IMG/VR virus record: IMGVR_UViG_2740892121_000006
Coordinates: 1-40,095 of that record
From: a virus
Taxonomy: Duplodnaviria; Heunggongvirae; Uroviricota; Caudoviricetes
DNA: 40,095 bases
Reading direction: 5' to 3' (one strand)
Shown: piece by piece, positions 3,151 to 34,936 of the stretch
How the letters are laid out: each line of letters begins with the position of its first letter
Position numbering within the stretch: the first letter of the stretch is position 1
Translations under genes and position numbers: made by a program
The notes under the pieces: generated by a model
The model's input: only the letters and a program-made list of their open reading frames with translations
What the model was told of the DNA's origin: nothing
Databases searched by the model: none

Positions 3151-5613
3151 TCAATTCCCTGTTAATTGCAAAACTTGCTCTTCCAGCTTTTTAACCCTGC
3201 GTCTCATCATCGCAGATTCCAGAATCAGAGCCTCTTCATAACGGATACCGTAACATTCACCAGCCTCGACGGCTTCGCGTACCAGAACCTTTGTCTGTAT
3301 AAGTGGGTAAACTCCTGCAGAATGCTCTTCTTCCGTCACATCCCTGTATTCTGCCGGGGTCTCATTCCACTTGTCATAACAGATAAATGCCAGTCGTGAC
3401 ACATCTATGCCTTCATTCTGAAATACACTGATAACATGCTGCGCAACTGCACCAAAGTGCCATCTTGCTCCGTCTTTACCTTTCACTTCGATCCTGTCAA
3501 GGTACTGGTATGAAACCCATTCCACTCTTTCCCATGCGTCCAGTATTTTCTCATCAATAACCTCTGGAGCAGTCTTGAAACGCGCATCGGACAGCACCGT
3601 AAACGCTGACTGGGTAAATCCCCCCGACCATGCACGACCAGCCAACCCAAGAGAATAAGTATTCGTTTTCGATGGTGTCATGGCTGAATCAGAAAACTGT
3701 ATATATTCTGAATTTCCAGTAGATATTCGAATATTTCCATTTATTAGCGACATAGTGCCTTTAGTATTATCACTATTGAATAATTTCAATTGCGAACTTA
3801 TACCGCCTCCCACAGCCAGAGATACATCGCCTTCAGCAAGCATTCTGAATTTATCTGCAGAAACAAGCGTCTGGTTAGCAAGGTTAAAATATTTAACCCA
3901 CCATTCAAAACGCCCTGACATAGTCCCAACGTACTGACCAAGCGCAGGGACGTGAACAACATTGCTATTTGTAGTGCCGTCTATACTGGAAATACCAGTC
4001 ACCGCTGATGCAGAACTCAGAATATTATTTCTGTCACCCGGATGTTTAATTTCAACAAAGTTCCTGATACACCCTTCCTCGAAGGTAACCACGCCGGAAG
4101 AACTATACATGGGGAATATTGACGCATAATTACTGCGTGCAGCATCTAAGAAACGAATGGTTGTAGATGTCTGCAGATCTCCTGATTCATTTTTCCCATC
4201 ACACCCAGTCATTAGAATATTACTGGCAATATTATTATTTCCCTGAACGGTGACGCCGTGCGCCTGCTTTGCGTCCGATTCAGAGTAATCAACCAGCACA
4301 TTCGAAATCAGGTTACCAGTCCCCTTGCCAACAACTACTGCGGCGTATTTTGGGTTGTTAGCCATTACACTGCTAATGATATTATTCGTTGGTGCAGTTT
4401 CCGTCTCAGTTCCATTGTAAACAACGTGCTGACACTCTTCACCAATAACATTGCTGACAATGTTATATTTTGCTGCTGTTTTAAGTTCCACTGCACCAAA
4501 CTGAGGATAATTTCTGGCTATCACACCATCAATTAGCGTATTTTGCGATGAATCAAAAAGCACACAACCTGCTTTTTTATTATTTGCGAACCCTAAATAC
4601 TCTCCTCTTATATCTCTAACAATGTAACCTGACGGAATACCATTATTCGGATAAGCGATCAAGCTAAATCCTGTTCCTCGCGTATTTGTAAATCTGATAT
4701 TTTTAACCGATACATCATGGCCACCTGAAAATGACACCTGGTGTCCCTGCACACTATCATCTGATTTATTTCCCATAATTGTTAGCGTACTAAGCATGCC
4801 ACCATCGGGCATGTTAAAAACCAGATGATTACCATCTCTGTCATACTGTTTTATCGTTCCCCCACCTGTTCCGTACAAGCCACAACGTGAAAGAGAAACT
4901 AAAGATGTATTGAATACCCCTTCCGGAACAAAAACACTGCTAAACGAATGTAATGATTTTGTAAAAGCATCCTTGTTATCATTTAAGATTCCATTTTGAG
5001 CTCCAAAATCCTTAATGCTGACACCATCACGCATCTTATCCTGGAACGTTCTGTATACCGCTCCAGAACCATACTGAATAAACCAACCAAAACCACCAAT
5101 AACTCCGGCGATTGCAGCATCGACATAATTACGCATTGAGCGATTATTTACAGCGTCCTGCTCAAGTGATGGATCGGCAAGGTTAGATATTCTGTTTTGC
5201 TTTGCATCGTAATATTTTGCAAGCAAAGATGGTTTCATCAATGCACGTCTGAACCACCCAAAACATCGCTGGATCAGCATCGTCAGGTAGTCAAATGCAT
5301 CCTCATGAACTTCGGGGAAAAATTTTCCCTGATTGCGAAGATCAGTCTCCTGCACCACATCAAGCACACGCTCTATCGTGATTCGCCAGCCAGCAGCAAG
5401 CGGCGACGGAAGAACCACTGCACCGCCACTATAAGTTCCCGCCCCTGTTACCGTATAACCAGCATCCAGCACTAGTTTTGTAACGTTACCGTTAAGGTCA
5501 GACACCTGAACAACCAGGTCGGATTTTTTGAAAATACGGAAGGTATACGGAAATGATGTCGTAACGCCGTTACCTGTGTATTCGTTGTGGTCAACTTCGG
5601 TTGAGACCGTCAT
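3151..5613 (-). CDS. Tailspike / tail fibre with T7-fibre-like N-terminal anchor and C-terminal S74 intramolecular chaperone
   Basis: N-terminus YTGNGVTTSFPYTFRIF resembles phage tail-fibre N-domain; long Gly/Asn/Ser-rich central region (beta-helix-like); C-terminus SDARFK...GARWHFGAVAQHV matches endosialidase-chaperone (peptidase S74) pattern; SD GGAG. Confidence 0.8.
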   Translation of the reverse strand: MTVSTEVDHNEYTGNGVTTSFPYTFRIFKKSDLVVQVSDLNGNVTKLVLDAGYTVTGAGTYSGGAVVLPSPLAAGWRITIERVLDVVQETDLRNQGKFFPEVHEDAFDYLTMLIQRCFGWFRRALMKPSLLAKYYDAKQNRISNLADPSLEQDAVNNRSMRNYVDAAIAGVIGGFGWFIQYGSGAVYRTFQDKMRDGVSIKDFGAQNGILNDNKDAFTKSLHSFSSVFVPEGVFNTSLVSLSRCGLYGTGGGTIKQYDRDGNHLVFNMPDGGMLSTLTIMGNKSDDSVQGHQVSFSGGHDVSVKNIRFTNTRGTGFSLIAYPNNGIPSGYIVRDIRGEYLGFANNKKAGCVLFDSSQNTLIDGVIARNYPQFGAVELKTAAKYNIVSNVIGEECQHVVYNGTETETAPTNNIISSVMANNPKYAAVVVGKGTGNLISNVLVDYSESDAKQAHGVTVQGNNNIASNILMTGCDGKNESGDLQTSTTIRFLDAARSNYASIFPMYSSSGVVTFEEGCIRNFVEIKHPGDRNNILSSASAVTGISSIDGTTNSNVVHVPALGQYVGTMSGRFEWWVKYFNLANQTLVSADKFRMLAEGDVSLAVGGGISSQLKLFNSDNTKGTMSLINGNIRISTGNSEYIQFSDSAMTPSKTNTYSLGLAGRAWSGGFTQSAFTVLSDARFKTAPEVIDEKILDAWERVEWVSYQYLDRIEVKGKDGARWHFGAVAQHVISVFQNEGIDVSRLAFICYDKWNETPAEYRDVTEEEHSAGVYPLIQTKVLVREAVEAGECYGIRYEEALILESAMMRRRVKKLEEQVLQLTGN

Positions 5614-5716: not shown

Positions 5717-5733
5717 ATTACCTTTCAGGTAAT
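5717..5733. promoter_or_regulatory. 17-bp palindrome ATTACC-N5-GGTAAT (candidate repressor operator)
   Basis: ATTACCTTTCAGGTAAT, perfect 6-bp inverted arms; about 75 bp upstream of small ant-like gene. Confidence 0.5.
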
Positions 5734-5789: not shown

Positions 5790-5809
5790 ATTGCATGGAG
5801 AAGATTAAG

Positions 5810-6067
5810 ATGCAGCAGTATCACTATCCACTGGAAGAGGGATTTACCGAAAGGATTCACACGCCGGGAGGCGTCAGGTCACTGGTGGAGGGATCGCACT
5901 TGATGAAATTACTCCGGGATCTCGATAAGGATGGATTTAATGTCGATGGCCCACTTGCCGAACTGACTGCACTGATTAACTACGTCACCAGCTCACAGAT
6001 GTCTATGCAGGATCTGCAAACACATCTCGACTATTGTGCCGAACAATTACGAAAGCAAACCACATAA
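5810..6067 (+). CDS. Small antirepressor-like protein (stand-alone copy of Ant C-terminal domain), LexA-controlled
   Basis: About 40 percent identity by eye to the C-terminal 65 aa of the Ant protein at 7534-8226; start at second ATG (SD GGAG 9 nt upstream); track start 5795 also possible. Confidence 0.55.
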   Translation: MQQYHYPLEEGFTERIHTPGGVRSLVEGSHLMKLLRDLDKDGFNVDGPLAELTALINYVTSSQMSMQDLQTHLDYCAEQLRKQTT

Positions 6068-6090: not shown

Positions 6091-6597
6091 TTAACAGTCG
6101 AAAAATTCTGGGTCCCACAAACTTGCATCGCGCGGCATGGATTCTAACTTTTTCAGCCGCAAAATTCTGTCACACTCGACAACTAATTTTTGCTTCTGCT
6201 CGTCAATTTCTACTGTCTTATGTGCTGGTTCATCCCAATAATCCAGAAGGAAGGCATGGCGTTCAGATGTGACCAGATAAATCACATACACGTCACTGGT
6301 TGGGATCTTTTTATGCTTGTTAGTGGTCTTGTCTTTCTTCCCAGACGCCCAGTTTTTCCAGCATTGTTCCGTACCGCTCTCACCAAACTTGTCAGTATAG
6401 TTTCCGATGTTTACATGAACGTGGCGTATGTGATATTCCAGCATCTCTTTCGGTGGATCCCGAAACAGAGTGTCCTTTCCGAAATCCTTATGATGACCGT
6501 AGCGCCAGTGATCTATGAACGCGTTTTTGATAGGTATTAGCTCAGGGTCCTTCCCAAAAATTCCAGGGTGAACCAACCCCTGGAATTTATTCGGCAT
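6091..6597 (-). CDS. Hypothetical protein (gene B of two-gene moron operon)
   Basis: 168 aa from ATG 6597 (SD AGGAG), start overlaps last codons of gene A by 11 nt; His-rich segments GHHKDFGKD, HIRHVHV; no family recognised; track ORF extends to 6660. Confidence 0.5.
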   Translation of the reverse strand: MPNKFQGLVHPGIFGKDPELIPIKNAFIDHWRYGHHKDFGKDTLFRDPPKEMLEYHIRHVHVNIGNYTDKFGESGTEQCWKNWASGKKDKTTNKHKKIPTSDVYVIYLVTSERHAFLLDYWDEPAHKTVEIDEQKQKLVVECDRILRLKKLESMPRDASLWDPEFFDC

Positions 6598-7114
6598 CGT
6601 CGTAGAGCTCCTGAGCCATATCTTCAGCAGTGCGTGCAAACATCCTGCGCGAGATTGCATGGGATTTCTCTACGGACATCTTTGGGACCTCATGCATAAC
6701 AAGTTGATGAGTTTTCTCATCAACTTGAAGTGGCTTGTATAAACGTTGCCACCTTTCGTTAATTTTATCCTTAAAGCCAGCGAAACCACTTTCCTGACTC
6801 TTGTATCCAAAATGAGATAAAGCCAAATTCCTTTCCATTTCATTCCTAATGTACTCAGCAAGGTTGCAGTGGAATACTTCCCCTTGTTTTTTTAGGCATG
6901 CTTCATGGTCTGTAACACTGTGACGGCTCTCATATAAGTAAATGCGATAGGAATTTTTATTATCCTCTTCTTCATAATTTCTAATCGCATCAGCAGTTGC
7001 CATAGCTGCAGCGTAAGCGGCTGCTTCAATCACCATCTCTTGCTCTTTTTCTTTTTCAGGCCTTTTCAAGGCAAAGCGTCTATGCCTCATCGCTGTAACT
7101 CTCTTCGTGTTCAT
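6587..7114 (-). CDS. Hypothetical protein (gene A of two-gene moron operon)
   Basis: 175 aa from ATG 7114 (G-rich SD); basic N-terminus, largely helical, acidic C-terminus; no family recognised; track start TTG 7126. Confidence 0.5.
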   Translation of the reverse strand: MNTKRVTAMRHRRFALKRPEKEKEQEMVIEAAAYAAAMATADAIRNYEEEDNKNSYRIYLYESRHSVTDHEACLKKQGEVFHCNLAEYIRNEMERNLALSHFGYKSQESGFAGFKDKINERWQRLYKPLQVDEKTHQLVMHEVPKMSVEKSHAISRRMFARTAEDMAQELYDDAE

Positions 7115-7125
7115 GGGCACCCCCA

Positions 7126-7142
7126 ACTACCTTTAGGGTAAA
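7126..7142. promoter_or_regulatory. Degenerate copy of the 17-bp palindrome
   Basis: ACTACCTTTAGGGTAAA, one mismatch per arm; overlaps the translation-initiation region of gene A. Confidence 0.35.
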
Positions 7143-7250
7143 CATTCTATCGAAAGTATACGCTCACTGGCAAAAAAATAGGCAGGTATTTTCTGAAATG
7201 GGATCAATCAAACCACATAGGGTTGAAATAACGTGAGTTATGCATTTATT

Positions 7251-7267
7251 ATTACCTTTACGGTAAA
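7251..7267. promoter_or_regulatory. 17-bp palindrome (candidate operator) upstream of ant
   Basis: ATTACCTTTACGGTAAA; preceded by TTGAAA-N17-TTATTA promoter-like hexamers on plus strand. Confidence 0.45.
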
Positions 7268-7359
7268 TTTACATTGCACTCCTCTTGTGCCATAGTAATC
7301 AGGCACTGGCAAAATCCAGTGCCGGGATTGGTCTCCCGGATTACTACAGAGGCACATAT

Positions 7360-7379
7360 GCCGCATAAGCGGTTTTTTT
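7360..7379 (+). terminator. Intrinsic terminator-like hairpin plus U-run inside the ant leader
   Basis: GCCGC-ATAA-GCGG followed by TTTTTTT; two further hairpins just upstream (7302-7323, 7322-7339). Confidence 0.4.
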
Positions 7380-7533
7380 ATGTGTAAAGCGCACCTATTC
7401 TATGGTGGGCTGTGTGGGGGCACCGAAAGGTGCGCCGGGTTCCTTTGTAGCCGGTAAGACCAACTCTGCACAGTTCACCACCATCTGATTGGTCTCAGCG
7501 GTGGTGATTAACCTAACTACAAAGGTGATCGCC

Positions 7534-8226
7534 ATGAATACCAAACCTTCCATCTTTTCCTTTGAGTCATCCTGCCAGATCCGTATGTTCATGATTGACG
7601 GAGAACCTTGGTTTGTCACCAAAGATGTGTGCAATGCTTTGAATATTGATGTTACACAAGCGAGAAAACTTGATAAAAAAGGCTGGAACAAAAAGGGGCT
7701 GTATTCAATACAGACCCCTGGTGGAATACAAGAACTATCCATCGTTTCAGAATCAGGTCTCTACATCCTTATTCTGCGTTGCAAAGAGGCAATGACAGAG
7801 GGAACGAGAGCATTCAGATTTCTTGAATGGGTTACAGGTGAGGTTCTTCCTCAGATCCGCCGCACCGGAAGTTACATTAAAAACTCGCTCCCGCAGGAAG
7901 AACGCATAAAGATGGTTGCCGACCAGGTAGCCAACGCCACAGCATCAGCAGTGATGCAGGCAATGAAGATAGAGAACAAAACCTACAGTGCCCCACTGAA
8001 GCCCGGCTACCGCAGCCTGATTCACTCGCCGTCTGGTGTTCTCGGCCTGACGGAGAACTCACTGCTGATGAATCTGCTGAACCAGTTACAGGACGACGGG
8101 CACGACGTATCGGGCGCGGCGGCGGAGCTGACCACCATGTTCTGCTACATCGTTGGTGTGAGCAAATGCCTGCGTGATATCCAGACGCACGCGGAGTACA
8201 TCAACGACAAAGCAGGGTTCTTCTGA
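7534..8226 (+). CDS. Antirepressor (Bro-N/AntA-type N-terminal domain plus C-terminal domain)
   Basis: N-terminus IRMFMIDGEPWFVTKDVCNALNI...GLYILILR typical of Bro-N/Ant domain; ATG 7534 with SD AAAGGTGA; track ORF begins at TTG 7489. Confidence 0.7.
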   Translation: MNTKPSIFSFESSCQIRMFMIDGEPWFVTKDVCNALNIDVTQARKLDKKGWNKKGLYSIQTPGGIQELSIVSESGLYILILRCKEAMTEGTRAFRFLEWVTGEVLPQIRRTGSYIKNSLPQEERIKMVADQVANATASAVMQAMKIENKTYSAPLKPGYRSLIHSPSGVLGLTENSLLMNLLNQLQDDGHDVSGAAAELTTMFCYIVGVSKCLRDIQTHAEYINDKAGFF

Positions 8227-26122: not shown

Positions 26123-26199
26123 GTGGCATTAGCTCAGTTGGACAGAGCAACCGCCTTCTAAGCGGTTGGTCGCAGGTTCGAATCCTGCATGCCACGCCA
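26123..26199 (+). tRNA. tRNA-Arg (anticodon UCU, reads AGA)
   Basis: Cloverleaf read by eye: acceptor GTGGCAT/ATGCCAC, D-arm AGCTCAGTTGGACAGAGC, anticodon loop CUUCUAA, T-arm GCAGGTTCGAATCCTGC, discriminator G, encoded CCA. Confidence 0.85.
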
Positions 26200-34351: not shown

Positions 34352-34936
34352 ATGAAAAGTATCCAGGACGTCCGCAGGCAAAATCTCAACGACTTGATCG
34401 ACCGTGAATTCAATGGTGTTCAGACGCGGATGGCAGAAAAACTTGGAACTCAGGCAAATCTGGTAAACCGCTGGGCTCTTGGCAAGAAGGTTATCGGCGA
34501 CCAGGTTGCGCGAAAAATTGAAGCTGCCGCCAATAAACCACGTAACTGGCTTGATATCGATCGCTCGCTTTCTCAGGAAGGTTTTCAGCCTGTCGGCCCA
34601 AGCGACATTGGTCAGCTGGCGGCTCACAACCTGGAACGCTGGATGAGCGAAAGCCGCGACCTTTCAACTCAGGGAAAACTTCACCGCGCATCCGGCGTCG
34701 CCCAGGTGACAATCAGCCGCCTGTTAAACAATGAGGTCAGTGTTTCCATTTCCACCCTGGAGAATGTTGCATCAGCATTCGGGCGTCACGGCTATGAATT
34801 ACTGATTCACCCGCACGACCCTGCGACCATCAACTATGACCGCTCGCGCTACGCATTGTTACCCGAAACCGAGAAAGCAAAGATCGAAAGTTACATTGAA
34901 TTTGTCATCAACCAGAACGAAAAAAACAAACAATAA
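34352..34936 (+). CDS. CI-like repressor with two tandem HTH (XRE-type) domains, no S24 peptidase domain
   Basis: HTH-like segments at residues about 25-65 and 105-150; no Ala-Gly/Ser-Lys protease signature; divergent from cro-like gene. Confidence 0.65.
   Translation: MKSIQDVRRQNLNDLIDREFNGVQTRMAEKLGTQANLVNRWALGKKVIGDQVARKIEAAANKPRNWLDIDRSLSQEGFQPVGPSDIGQLAAHNLERWMSESRDLSTQGKLHRASGVAQVTISRLLNNEVSVSISTLENVASAFGRHGYELLIHPHDPATINYDRSRYALLPETEKAKIESYIEFVINQNEKNKQ

Follow-up and report, generated by a model that had tools for sequence, protein, structure and literature searches.

The 400-bp region described here separates gene A, which reads divergently, from the antirepressor gene ant. It lies in a window of 40,095 nucleotides, the whole stretch of DNA analysed, from a virus of the Caudoviricetes (IMG/VR record IMGVR_UViG_2740892121_000006). 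The ant gene encodes a Bro-N protein (Pfam Bro-N, 1.8e-13; PHROG "anti-repressor Ant", 2e-50) that is 77% identical to ORF4 of phage ZX5, an antirepressor whose overexpression lowers lysogeny.

Judged from its sequence, the region upstream of ant is a known two-RNA control module, IsrK followed by a C4-type antisense RNA. It contains, from 5′ to 3′, an operator with tandem promoters, IsrK (with a1, b1, and a terminator), a C4-like RNA (with a′ and b′), and the sites a2 and b2 (Table 1). The module is real and well supported; it is also ordinary, with nothing new in kind. Of 5426 complete E. coli genomes, 434 contain the module, and the annotated features of those 434 genomes include neither IsrK nor C4 RNA. 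Every feature listed in the original prediction for this region, made from the letters alone, was found in its place or at most 1–2 nt away. ARAGORN found no tRNA-like gene in the region. An Rfam search of the region found no riboswitch or other cis-regulatory family apart from a speF match of 13 bits, an identity that we dropped because this score is at chance level.

Table 1. Features identified or predicted around the gene A–ant interval (window coordinates)
Feature	Position	Strand	Basis or remark
Operator copy, cTACC-TTTAG-GGTAA	7127–7141		directly downstream of the -10 in the gene A promoter
Sigma-70-like promoter of divergent gene A, TTGCCA-18-TAGAAT	7144–7173	-	predicted by consensus match, 10/12
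Upstream promoter candidate, TTGAAA-18-TATTAT	7223–7252	+	10/12 matches; position of P1 P51a (P2c4)
Operator palindrome, TTACC-TTTAC-GGTAA	7252–7266		candidate operator, between upstream-promoter -10 and proximal-promoter -35
Proximal IsrK promoter, TTTACA-17-CATAGT, TG upstream of -10	7268–7296	+	aligns with P1 P51b (P1c4); predicted start about 7303
IsrK small RNA: hairpin 1, hairpin 2, linker, intrinsic terminator	7303–7379	+	Rfam RF01394; equivalent to the structured c4-a1b1 element
a1, UUGGUCU	7328–7334	+	loop of IsrK hairpin 2; complementary to a′
b1, CUACAGAGG	7344–7352	+	single-stranded linker of IsrK; 9 bp with b′ including one G-U
Outer helix around terminator hairpin and U-tract, 7352–7358 with 7379–7385	7352–7385	+	formable in read-through transcripts only
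IsrK intrinsic terminator, GCCGC-AUAA-GCGGU and U run	7360–7379	+	terminator scan and fold
C4-type antisense RNA	7404–7482	+	ends predicted by register with mature P1 C4; Rfam match 7398–7485
b′, CCUUUGUAG	7442–7450	+	loop of C4 hairpin 2; perfect 9-nt complement of 7517–7525
a′, AGACCAA	7457–7463	+	single-stranded junction after C4 hairpin 2; perfect 7-mer complement of 7328–7334 and 7489–7495
Alternative hairpin, C4 closing-stem 3′ strand (7473–7482) with GGUGGUGA (7500–7507)	7473–7507	+	a2 in loop
ACCA 3′ of C4 closing stem, tRNA-3′-end-like	7480–7483	+	stem then R-C-C-A signature
a2, UUGGUCU	7489–7495	+	target site in ant leader
b2, CUACAAAGG	7517–7525	+	target site on ant Shine-Dalgarno
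Shine-Dalgarno of ant, AAGGUGA	7522–7528	+	5 nt before ATG at 7534
ant, Bro-N antirepressor, 230 aa	7534–8226	+	Pfam Bro-N, PHROG

Promoters and operator

The promoter-like hexamers originally proposed (TTGAAA-N17-TTATTA) are present, with 10 of 12 matches. TTGAAA at 7223–7228 can be read with TATTAT at 7247–7252 (spacer 18) or with TTATTA at 7246–7251 (spacer 17). The conserved promoter, however, is the proximal one, TTTACA-17-CATAGT. In 75 distinct loci we observed a -10 consensus tATAGT and a -35 TTG at a fixed distance from base 1 of IsrK, and the register is that of the annotated P1 promoter P1c4. Close Uetakevirus relatives have promoter-like hexamers at the position of the upstream promoter despite differing sequence (alignment judged by eye), and more distant modules lack this promoter.

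The original proposal of an operator at the palindrome names the right kind of element, of which the genome has about 15 copies: TTACC-N5-GGTAA occurs at 15 sites in the window vs 0.74 expected. The copy at 7127–7141 is a direct repeat of the 7253–7267 site (93% identical), and the motif also flanks HTH repressor-like genes at 33.9–35.1 kb, where a 194-aa HTH protein is encoded at 34352–34936. Related phages keep the half-sites and vary the 5-nt spacer.

IsrK and its terminator

The first RNA of the module is a member of the IsrK family (74.7 bits vs a gathering score of 50, model positions 1–77 of 77). It contains hairpins at 7303–7322 and 7323–7338 and a 5-bp stem followed by a seven-T run. 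All three hairpins occur in the minimum-energy fold (-26.4 kcal/mol, z = -2.8), in agreement with the RF01394 model; the two hairpins and terminator fold as first described, and the terminator scan was positive. Hairpin 1 has compensatory changes in 5 of its 7 pairs (30 sequences). Because IsrK copies were delimited by a run of at least 5 T, all 68 distinct copies gathered have one at the 3′ end. The c4-a1b1 model (RF03163) spans the same two hairpins and scores 38.4 bits at 7290–7342, below its gathering score of 46.7, and the isrK model suits the window sequence better. In P1, c4-a1b1 scores 51.0 bits and the a1b1 region matches isrK as well, at 35 bits; in Gifsy-1 c4-a1b1 scores 48.1.

Of 67 distinct modules, 66 have the helix that encloses the terminator hairpin in their minimum-energy fold; the sequence of this helix differs among modules. 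P1 also has complementary arms for it (sequence read by eye). IsrK of Gifsy-1 binds Hfq, and its terminator is partially read through into the antirepressor mRNA (PMC4825925).

We predict IsrK to be about 77 nt (7303–7379), since transcription from the conserved promoter would begin near 7303. The small RNA that had been proposed upstream of ant, complete with an intrinsic terminator, is the known IsrK; its proposed length of 110–130 nt is not that given by the conserved promoter. A longer transcript belongs to a very unlikely alternative, in which a single 110–130-nt small RNA or a plain attenuation leader occupies the region, ant expression depends on the terminator alone, and the 3′ part is a folded leader held by an inverted repeat at 7389/7435. 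The terminator and the upstream promoter do exist, and a transcript running from that promoter to 7379 would be about 120 nt, but the conserved promoter predicts 77 nt, and what follows the terminator is a C4 RNA whose target sites co-vary with it.

The repeat itself is perfect over 8 nt (GCGCACCT, 7389–7396, and AGGTGCGC, 7428–7435), but it is confined to one lineage: median complementarity is 4 nt in 66 distinct related contexts and reaches 8 only in close relatives of the window. We rejected it as a leader fold because relatives lack it and because it clashes with C4 hairpin 1, whose 3′ arm is the 7428–7435 region (co-varying with its partner 7419–7423). What stands of the attenuation proposal is RNA-based control of ant, with the downstream part probably reached by read-through as in Gifsy-1 (PMC4825925); the second half of the supposed leader is instead a C4 antisense RNA.

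C4 RNA and its target sites

The C4 match (RF01695) scores 78.6 bits vs a gathering score of 45 and covers model positions 1–87 of 87. The minimum-energy fold is -43.6 kcal/mol (z = -4.5). The architecture is a long closing stem around two hairpins and is backed by co-variation. In 36 sequences 99.3% of cells are paired and 19 of 27 pairs have compensatory change; sliding the partners by 1–3 columns leaves 31–52% of cells paired, and 0 of 500 shuffles reached the observed values. Right after the closing stem comes R-C-C, whose two C never vary; an A follows it in 25 of 36 aligned sequences and in 48 of 65 distinct C4 copies. The C4 precursor of P1/P7 was reportedly found by Hartmann et al. in 1995 to be a substrate of RNase P. 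The c4 feature of P1 lies at 3344–3420 of the P1 sequence used for comparison. The 3′ strand of the closing stem can also form the alternative hairpin with a2 in its loop, which is mutually exclusive with the closing stem. Runs of 8–10 bp occur at equal distance in nearly all modules and co-vary with the C4 3′ strand.

The recognition sequences a′ and b′ occupy the same positions in C4 as they do in P1, and the three copies of each sequence vary jointly (a′/a1/a2 and b′/b1/b2) across 74 distinct related modules. In these modules, a′ matches a1 and a2 of its own locus over at least 7 nt in 97%, vs 15–16% between different loci; b′ matches its own b1 in 68% and its own b2 in 88%, vs 4–6% between different loci. 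The allele words occur in mixed combinations (13 a and 43 b in 69 modules). Local duplex energies are -18.3 kcal/mol for a′-a1, -14.8 for a′-a2, -14.4 for b′-b1, and -15.5 for b′-b2, crude values for the local duplex alone that leave out intramolecular structure. Cofolding was set aside as an estimate of binding; its gain was about 0 kcal/mol, and loop-loop contacts are beyond it.

In most of 71 modules analysed an ATG lies about 6–14 nt past the end of b2. In the window no ORF lies between b2 and ant, which starts 9 nt past b2; in many other modules of this set, a gene of some 64 codons whose product begins MAT... comes directly after b2. The original prediction had missed the main content of 7398–7533, which is the C4-type antisense RNA and the target sites. 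Three more copies of CTACAGAGG occur in the window (1117, 20582, and 33944), in or beside hairpins with T runs on the 3′ side or within a gene. As extra C4 targets they were rejected, having no neighboring a site.

A 28-codon ORF also lies on the C4 sequence (ATG at 7402, codons 7402–7485, stop at 7486–7488). It has a sub-threshold match to Pfam Phage_ASH (E = 1.7e-4, 22.5 bits vs a cut-off of 26), and its equivalent in phage ZX5 is annotated as "ash family protein"; the remaining small ORFs of the region have no NCBIfam or Pfam match. If these annotations were taken at face value, the functional products would be small proteins (an Ash family protein or an orf45-like peptide) and not RNAs. 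We find this hardly credible, as substitutions keep the base pairs, the ORF varies between 3 and 154 codons among modules, and no purine-rich Shine-Dalgarno-like sequence lies directly 5′ of the 7402 ATG. According to the Gifsy-1 authors, too, it is the nucleotide sequence, not the amino acid sequence, that is conserved. "Ash family protein" calls on the C4 segment are probably translations of an RNA gene.

The same ORF is relevant to a purely cis-acting switch of the kind described in Gifsy-1. There the read-through mRNA would lock itself by placing a1/b1 on the C4 region, short IsrK would open the fold, and ant would be coupled to an orf45-like ORF, with no diffusible antisense RNA. The model was put to mutation tests in Gifsy-1 (PMC4825925), where an a1 mutation in cis raised anrP translation, a result that counts against a trans-antisense reading. 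Constitutive STnc1160 did not relieve IsrK toxicity in that study, which also counts against such a reading. In the authors' account, control comes from the long mRNA adopting alternative folds and from translating a small ORF that sits on the C4 region; it does not involve a diffusible C4 (PMC4825925). The window does have an ORF on C4 and conserved alternative helices that are unable to coexist. We nevertheless consider this model unlikely here. The stop of the 7402 ORF is 46 nt before the ant ATG, making termination-reinitiation coupling improbable, and the stop of the C4-region ORF (3–154 codons long) abuts a downstream ATG in only 1 of 71 modules; RNA structure is conserved and the reading frame is not. 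The conserved complementarity of b2 and b′ over the ribosome-binding site would be superfluous to a pure cis a1/b1 model, and a processed RNA of about 80 nt exists in Salmonella.

Control of ant and comparison with known systems

The best reading, which we hold to be very probable, is an RNA switch of the P1 immI type that holds the antirepressor Ant off. Antisense repression is established in P1/P7, and terminator read-through, a1-a′ pairing, and trans activation by IsrK are established in Gifsy-1. For the present phage, we infer the start site, read-through, C4 processing, and repression. Transcription would start at about 7303 from the conserved promoter, with the repressor operator adjoining it on the 5′ side and overlapping the upstream promoter. 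Most transcripts would end at the terminator (7379), giving a 77-nt IsrK that bears the target copies a1 and b1. Transcripts that read through would contain C4, which by homology with P1 may be excised as a stable RNA of about 79 nt, its 5′ end probably made by RNase P as in that phage. The a′ and b′ sequences would then pair with a2 and b2 in the ant leader, and ant would go untranslated because b2 covers its Shine-Dalgarno sequence, which C4 pairing would block. IsrK would compete for a′/b′ through its matching sites, and an excess of IsrK would release ant translation; Ant, once made, may inactivate the prophage repressor. Here too we infer the direction of the IsrK effect, the operator-binding protein, and what Ant acts on. 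As specificity alleles, a and b would restrict repression of a given ant to a C4 with matching sequences.

Every read-through transcript contains a1b1, C4, and a2b2 at 1:1:1, so repression would need C4 to outlive IsrK. Tentatively, and with some doubt, we suggest that IsrK is a dedicated RNA decoy for C4. On this view the module would work by itself as a three-site titration switch that responds to transcription rate, with a and b as an address code and with the elements specific to read-through transcripts guiding folding. Newly made IsrK, which would be short-lived, may be opposed to a stable C4 that has built up. The a and b words reassort freely and may form a two-part address code for cross-repression of co-resident or incoming phages; if so, keeping the three copies matched would require concerted change. 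The choice of precursor fold may be steered by two conserved elements, the helix around the terminator and the a2-displaying hairpin.

The module explains a conspicuous non-coding stretch in a common type of E. coli prophage. IsrK and C4, usually listed apart, are halves of one switch that gates the antirepressor and would therefore gate prophage induction and superinfection immunity. This suggests a rule for annotation: an isrK match, then a C4 match, then a Bro-N/Ant/Icd-like gene marks an immI-type module. The table of a and b alleles offers a route to predicting which prophages are homo-immune at the level of immI. Specialists in P1 or in Salmonella small RNAs will find no surprise here.

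The original prediction compared the locus with antisense control of ant in P22; P1/P7 c4 and Gifsy-1 isrK are the right comparison. In P22 immI (Pant, arc, mnt, and sar RNA) a small RNA also limits antirepressor translation, but sar is a true cis-antisense RNA from the opposite strand, whereas the regulator in the window is on the same strand as its target and upstream of it. Control by a sar-like RNA made from the other strand and running across the start of ant is exceedingly improbable. The minus strand has one weak promoter-like site (7619–7591, 9 of 12 matches). However, promoter-like sites number 4 vs a shuffle expectation of 1.4, only a modest excess, the terminator scan of the region found no terminator on the minus strand, Rfam found no match to sar or another minus-strand RNA family (E up to 1), and the conserved structure is on the plus strand. 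We also dropped 24B_1, a 20-nt RNA of Stx phage phi24B said to repress ant, as a relative: HM208303 at 45.3–47.3 kb has no C4 or isrK match, and the 24B_1 locus has a sub-threshold sok-like match only.

The immunity system of satellite phage P4 (seqA, CI RNA with seqB, and seqC) likewise has a processed sense-strand RNA between two target copies, and the Gifsy-1 authors consider IsrK a structural homologue of seqA (PMC4825925). The likeness to P4 is by description only, and P4 CI, as described, stops transcription prematurely and does not block the ribosome-binding site.

P1/P7 immI (Oc4/Op51, P51a/P51b, a1 b1, c4, a2 b2, icd, and ant1/2) has the same order of elements with nearly the same spacing. 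In P1 and the window, respectively, a1 is 14 and 16 nt from b1, a2 is 29 and 27 nt from b2, and b2 is 18 and 17 nt from the start codon. Both have a C4 family RNA (68.8 bits in P1), with a′ in the junction and b′ in the hairpin 2 loop. Both have a repressor operator at tandem promoters (about 40 nt apart in P1) and repressor operators scattered over the genome. The two differ in that icd is the first regulated gene of P1, with ant coupled to it, whereas the window has no icd and b2 is on the ribosome-binding site of ant itself. The antirepressor of P1 is Ant1/2 and not a Bro-N protein, its operator is an asymmetric 17-bp C1 site and not a palindrome, and P1 is a plasmid prophage whereas the window belongs to a Uetakevirus-like podovirus.

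The isrK-orf45-anrP locus of Gifsy-1 (Hershko-Shalev et al. 2016, PMC4825925) has an IsrK with the same three hairpins (79.3 bits), followed by a C4 family RNA (69 bits) equivalent to STnc1160/orf45′. As in the window, a2 follows C4 and b2 is on the ribosome-binding site of the antirepressor gene (anrP). The mutations G28A and G31A were tested there with the compensating C162U and C159U, and IsrK in trans activates anrP translation (PMC4825925); by our numbering on the Gifsy-1 sequence, G28A and G31A fall in a1. The alleles differ: a is TTGGCGT in Gifsy-1 and TTGGTCT in the window, and b is ATCACCG and CTACAAAGG, respectively. The C4-region ORF of Gifsy-1 has 45 codons and overlaps the anrP start (ATGA), which allows coupling; that of the window is shorter and ends well upstream. 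Nothing next to the window locus corresponds to AntQ, the antiterminator that is the downstream consequence in Gifsy-1.

APSE phages of Hamiltonella contain the same RNA pair beside a Bro-N gene, annotated in GenBank with a′/b′ (bioRxiv 10.1101/2020.03.17.996009). That study counted IsrK and C4 as small RNAs separate from each other (bioRxiv 10.1101/2020.03.17.996009). The APSE and window loci have about 70% nucleotide identity and different alleles.

IsrK, C4 RNA and their target sites

The intergenic region between gene A and ant encodes two RNAs with curated models. An Rfam search with the entire window gave full-length matches to isrK (RF01394; 74.7 bits, gathering score 50) and to C4 antisense RNA (RF01695; 78.6 bits, gathering score 45). 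The two hairpins (7303-7338) and the short stem with a seven-T run (7360-7379) listed in the original prediction are present and are IsrK; the part it interpreted as a leader closed by a long-range inverted repeat corresponds to C4 RNA. Also present are its promoter-like hexamers, TTGAAA (7223) and TATTAT/TTATTA (7246-7252), and its palindrome, TTACC-TTTAC-GGTAA (7252-7266). The region 7260-7545 folds far better than shuffled sequences (-114.6 kcal/mol, z = -6.0), so the structure noticed there is real, but two of the listed items were given the wrong weight.

The C4 fold has a 17-bp closing stem around two hairpins (minimum free energy -43.6 kcal/mol, z = -4.5). It carries the recognition sequences a' and b', with target copies both in IsrK (a1, b1) and ahead of ant (a2, b2). 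These complementarities account for the direct (D3, D4) and inverted (I3, I6, I14) repeats of the window repeat search. On the Rfam c4-a1b1 model the window scores 38.4 bits, under the threshold of 46.7. Neither a minus-strand search nor Rfam supports antisense control of ant from the opposite strand, as in P22, to which the region had been likened.

Features of the gene A-ant region and copies of the predicted operator
Feature	Position	Strand	Remark
Gene A, probable start	7114	minus	
Conserved promoter TTTACA-17-CATAGT	7268-7296		TG before -10
IsrK	7303-7379		Rfam match
a1	7328-7334		loop of IsrK hairpin 2; second copy of a target
b1	7344-7352		IsrK linker; second copy of b target; one G-U pair
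C4 RNA	7398-7485		Rfam match
b' (CCUUUGUAG)	7442-7450		loop of C4 hairpin 2
a' (AGACCAA)	7457-7463		C4 junction
a2	7489-7495		perfect complement of a'
b2	7517-7525		perfect complement of b'; overlaps ant Shine-Dalgarno
ant Shine-Dalgarno AAGGUGA	7522-7528		
ant ATG	7534	plus	
TTACC-N5-GGTAA copies	5486, 5718, 7127, 7252, 8311, 25786, 28913, 28931, 31933, 31995, 33897, 34234, 34282, 34994, 35056		

Two minus-strand genes, gene A (6587-7114; PHROG 9503) and the next gene (6091-6660; PHROG 1651), match nothing in Pfam or NCBIfam. The products of gene A and ant share the N-terminal sequence MNTK, so that a 13-nt imperfect inverted repeat (7104-7116/7532-7544) surrounds their start codons, probably by chance. 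Elsewhere, the phage carries a tRNA-Arg gene (anticodon TCT) at 26123-26199 on the plus strand.

Conservation across related modules

Relatives were searched with a pattern from the invariant part of IsrK that left the a1 loop free. It matched 120 viral contigs, from which 125 segments were extracted, and a C4-like RNA also lies downstream in 82 of these. Across 36 diverse sequences, including P1, 99.3% of the cells in the C4 structure are paired, and 19 of 27 pairs are changed on both sides. None of 500 shuffles attains the observed values, and pairing falls to 31-52% when partners are slid by 1-3 columns. IsrK hairpin 1 has compensatory changes in five of its seven pairs.

The recognition sequences match their own targets. 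Exact complementarity of 7 nt or more joins a' to the a1 of its own module in 97% of 74 distinct modules, and to the a2 likewise in 97%; b' matches its own b1 in 68% and its own b2 in 88%. When the C4 of one locus is compared with the targets of another, the values are 15% (a1), 16% (a2), 4% (b1), and 6% (b2). Specificity alleles reassort. Across 69 modules there are 13 distinct a words and 43 distinct b words; the b allele of the window accompanies two of the a words, and TTGGCGT as the a word accompanies 17 different b words. The three copies of each a or b sequence stay matched despite this free reassortment across related loci. In most modules an ATG follows within about 6-14 nt of the end of b2, which places b2 on the first gene's ribosome-binding site. 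Two viral contigs have two IsrK-pattern matches each, about 1-2.6 kb apart (L055 at 7107 and 9743, L079 at 2428 and 3571). Both matches in L079 are followed by a C4-like RNA, with different specificity sequences, and are predicted to be adjacent modules, each with an address of its own.

The inverted repeat 7389-7396/7428-7435, originally seen as a long-range leader fold, is present as a perfect 8-nt repeat. As a fold it was rejected: over 66 distinct contexts, median complementarity between the hairpin-1 region and the 25 nt preceding C4 is 4 nt, and 8 nt is attained only in the closest relatives of the window. Its 3' arm is part of C4 hairpin 1, in which all five pairs co-vary with 7419-7423. 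We take the repeat to be coincidental and particular to this lineage.

Two further helices are conserved, both outside the consensus of the Rfam isrK and C4 models. One, of 5-7 bp (7352-7358 with 7379-7385), surrounds the terminator of IsrK together with its U-tract and can form only in read-through RNA. It occurs, with varied sequence, in 66 of 67 distinct modules, and arms with the same complementarity are visible in P1. The other forms if 7473-7482, the 3' strand of the closing stem of C4, pairs instead with GGUGGUGA (7500-7507), giving a hairpin that displays a2 in a 17-18-nt loop. This hairpin co-varies across modules and is exclusive with folded C4. Both helices are probably part of the alternative folding reported for Gifsy-1.

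A 28-codon ORF (7402-7485, plus strand) lies exactly on C4 and could suggest that small proteins are the functional products. It has a sub-threshold Pfam match to PF10554 Phage_ASH (E = 1.7e-4), and the equivalent ORF of phage ZX5 (772-885 of comparison sequence L127) is annotated "ash family protein". However, the conservation pattern is that of the RNA, and functional small proteins are unlikely. Where this segment is called as an Ash-family protein, the call may in many cases be a translated C4 RNA gene.

Promoters, operator and proposed regulation

In 75 distinct upstream regions anchored on the first IsrK base, a -10 consensus tATAGT and a -35 TTG are found at fixed positions, while the remainder has diverged. 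The conserved promoter predicts a start at about 7303 and thus a 77-nt IsrK, not the small RNA of 110-130 nt or attenuation leader first envisaged; a plain attenuator or 120-nt RNA also leaves the C4 evidence out of account. The originally proposed promoter lies 44 nt further upstream, where hexamers are retained only by close relatives. P1 has a promoter at each position: P1c4 (formerly P51b) is in register with the conserved promoter, and P2c4 (formerly P51a) with the upstream one. An exact 11-nt repeat, CACTGGCAAAA (7165-7175 and 7304-7314; roughly 0.03 expected by chance in 500 bp), forms the 5' half of IsrK hairpin 1 and recurs inside the -35 region of the gene A promoter.

The palindrome between the two promoters is a predicted operator. 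The window has 15 copies of TTACC-N5-GGTAA with at most one mismatch (0.74 expected), nearly all intergenic; some lie in the region from which two HTH regulator genes diverge. Copies cluster about these genes (33.9-35.1 kb), and one (7127-7141) is at the start of the divergent gene A transcript. The gene A and IsrK promoters carry the same operator. Related phages keep the half-sites and vary the spacer. The set looks like a genome-wide set of repressor operators. A 90-aa ORF (5795-6067, plus strand; PHROG 450), a stand-alone copy of the Ant C-terminal domain (42% identity, E = 1e-20), is preceded at a distance of 63 nt by an operator copy of its own (5718-5732).

We propose that repressor bound at the operator limits transcription and that IsrK is the end product of most transcripts. 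C4 would arise from read-through transcripts, probably released by RNase P. The C4 stem is followed by an invariant R-C-C and usually A (ACCA at 7480-7483 in the window), and the C4 precursor of P1 and P7 is reportedly an RNase P substrate. Pairing of C4 with a2/b2 would block the ant ribosome-binding site, and IsrK, by competing for a'/b', would release ant. Local duplex energies of decoy and target are similar (a'-a1 -18.3, a'-a2 -14.8, b'-b1 -14.4, and b'-b2 -15.5 kcal/mol). Pairing of the middle portion of C4 with IsrK or the leader is far stronger than with shuffled targets. Usually b' pairs better with b2 (48 of 74 modules); a1 appears stronger than a2 in 73 of 74, partly reflecting palindromic CCGG stems. 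The small ORF on C4 stops 46 nt before ant, which argues that ant is controlled directly and not through coupling. The position and variability of this ORF weaken the alternative of a pure cis switch that works through coupling to it.

Comparison with known systems

The window belongs to a Uetakevirus-like phage, with relatives including phiV10, TL-2011b, and ZX5. It shares 98% identity with phage EC.W1-9 over 7100-7560, and its Ant is 77% identical to ZX5 ORF4, overexpression of which cut prophage titre a thousand-fold. The module is common, occurring in 434 of 5426 complete E. coli genomes; under an E. coli genome match, only the BRO-N gene is annotated. In phage phi24B (HM208303, about 45.6-45.8 kb; 337-498 of comparison sequence L125), a sub-threshold match to the sok antitoxin family (38 bits, E = 4e-7) suggests a hok/sok-like locus; it falls in the intergenic region reported to encode 24B_1, an RNA of microRNA size.

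The P1 immI region has an identical element order and nearly identical spacing; its GenBank record lists the operator Oc4, two promoters, a1, b1, a 77-nt C4 RNA, a2, b2, and icd-ant. The one departure of the window phage from the model systems is that it lacks icd. The P1 a1b1 region matches both c4-a1b1 (51 bits) and isrK (35 bits, sub-threshold, terminator included), so IsrK and the a1b1 element are the same thing. The palindromes of the window are dispersed much as C1 operators are in P1.

The Gifsy-1 isrK locus likewise encodes IsrK (79.3 bits) and C4 (69 bits), and there a2/b2 lie on the ribosome-binding site of anrP. At that locus Hershko-Shalev et al. (PMC4825925) showed that transcription reads through the terminator of IsrK, that a processed RNA (STnc1160) of about 80 nt exists, and that IsrK activates anrP translation in trans. 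Compensatory mutations support pairing of IsrK G28/G31 with C162/C159 of the C4 region (PMC4825925); numbered on the sequence of the locus, G28/G31 fall in a1. The authors noted the likeness to P4 seqA and CI, and read their data as refolding of a long mRNA and not as free C4 action; mutating a1 in cis raised expression (PMC4825925). This is the weak point of our proposed mechanism, which may act in cis as well as in trans. In APSE phage records, both RNAs are already annotated adjoining a Bro-N gene (bioRxiv 10.1101/2020.03.17.996009).

Both RNAs, the pairing logic, the decoy copy, and the antirepressor link are thus already in the literature, and the RNAs are in curated models. Only the instance is new, namely direct control of a Bro-N ant in a Uetakevirus-like prophage that has its own pair of alleles. 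To the known systems we add the operator that recurs across the genome and comparative detail on the reassortment of alleles and on the two further conserved helices.
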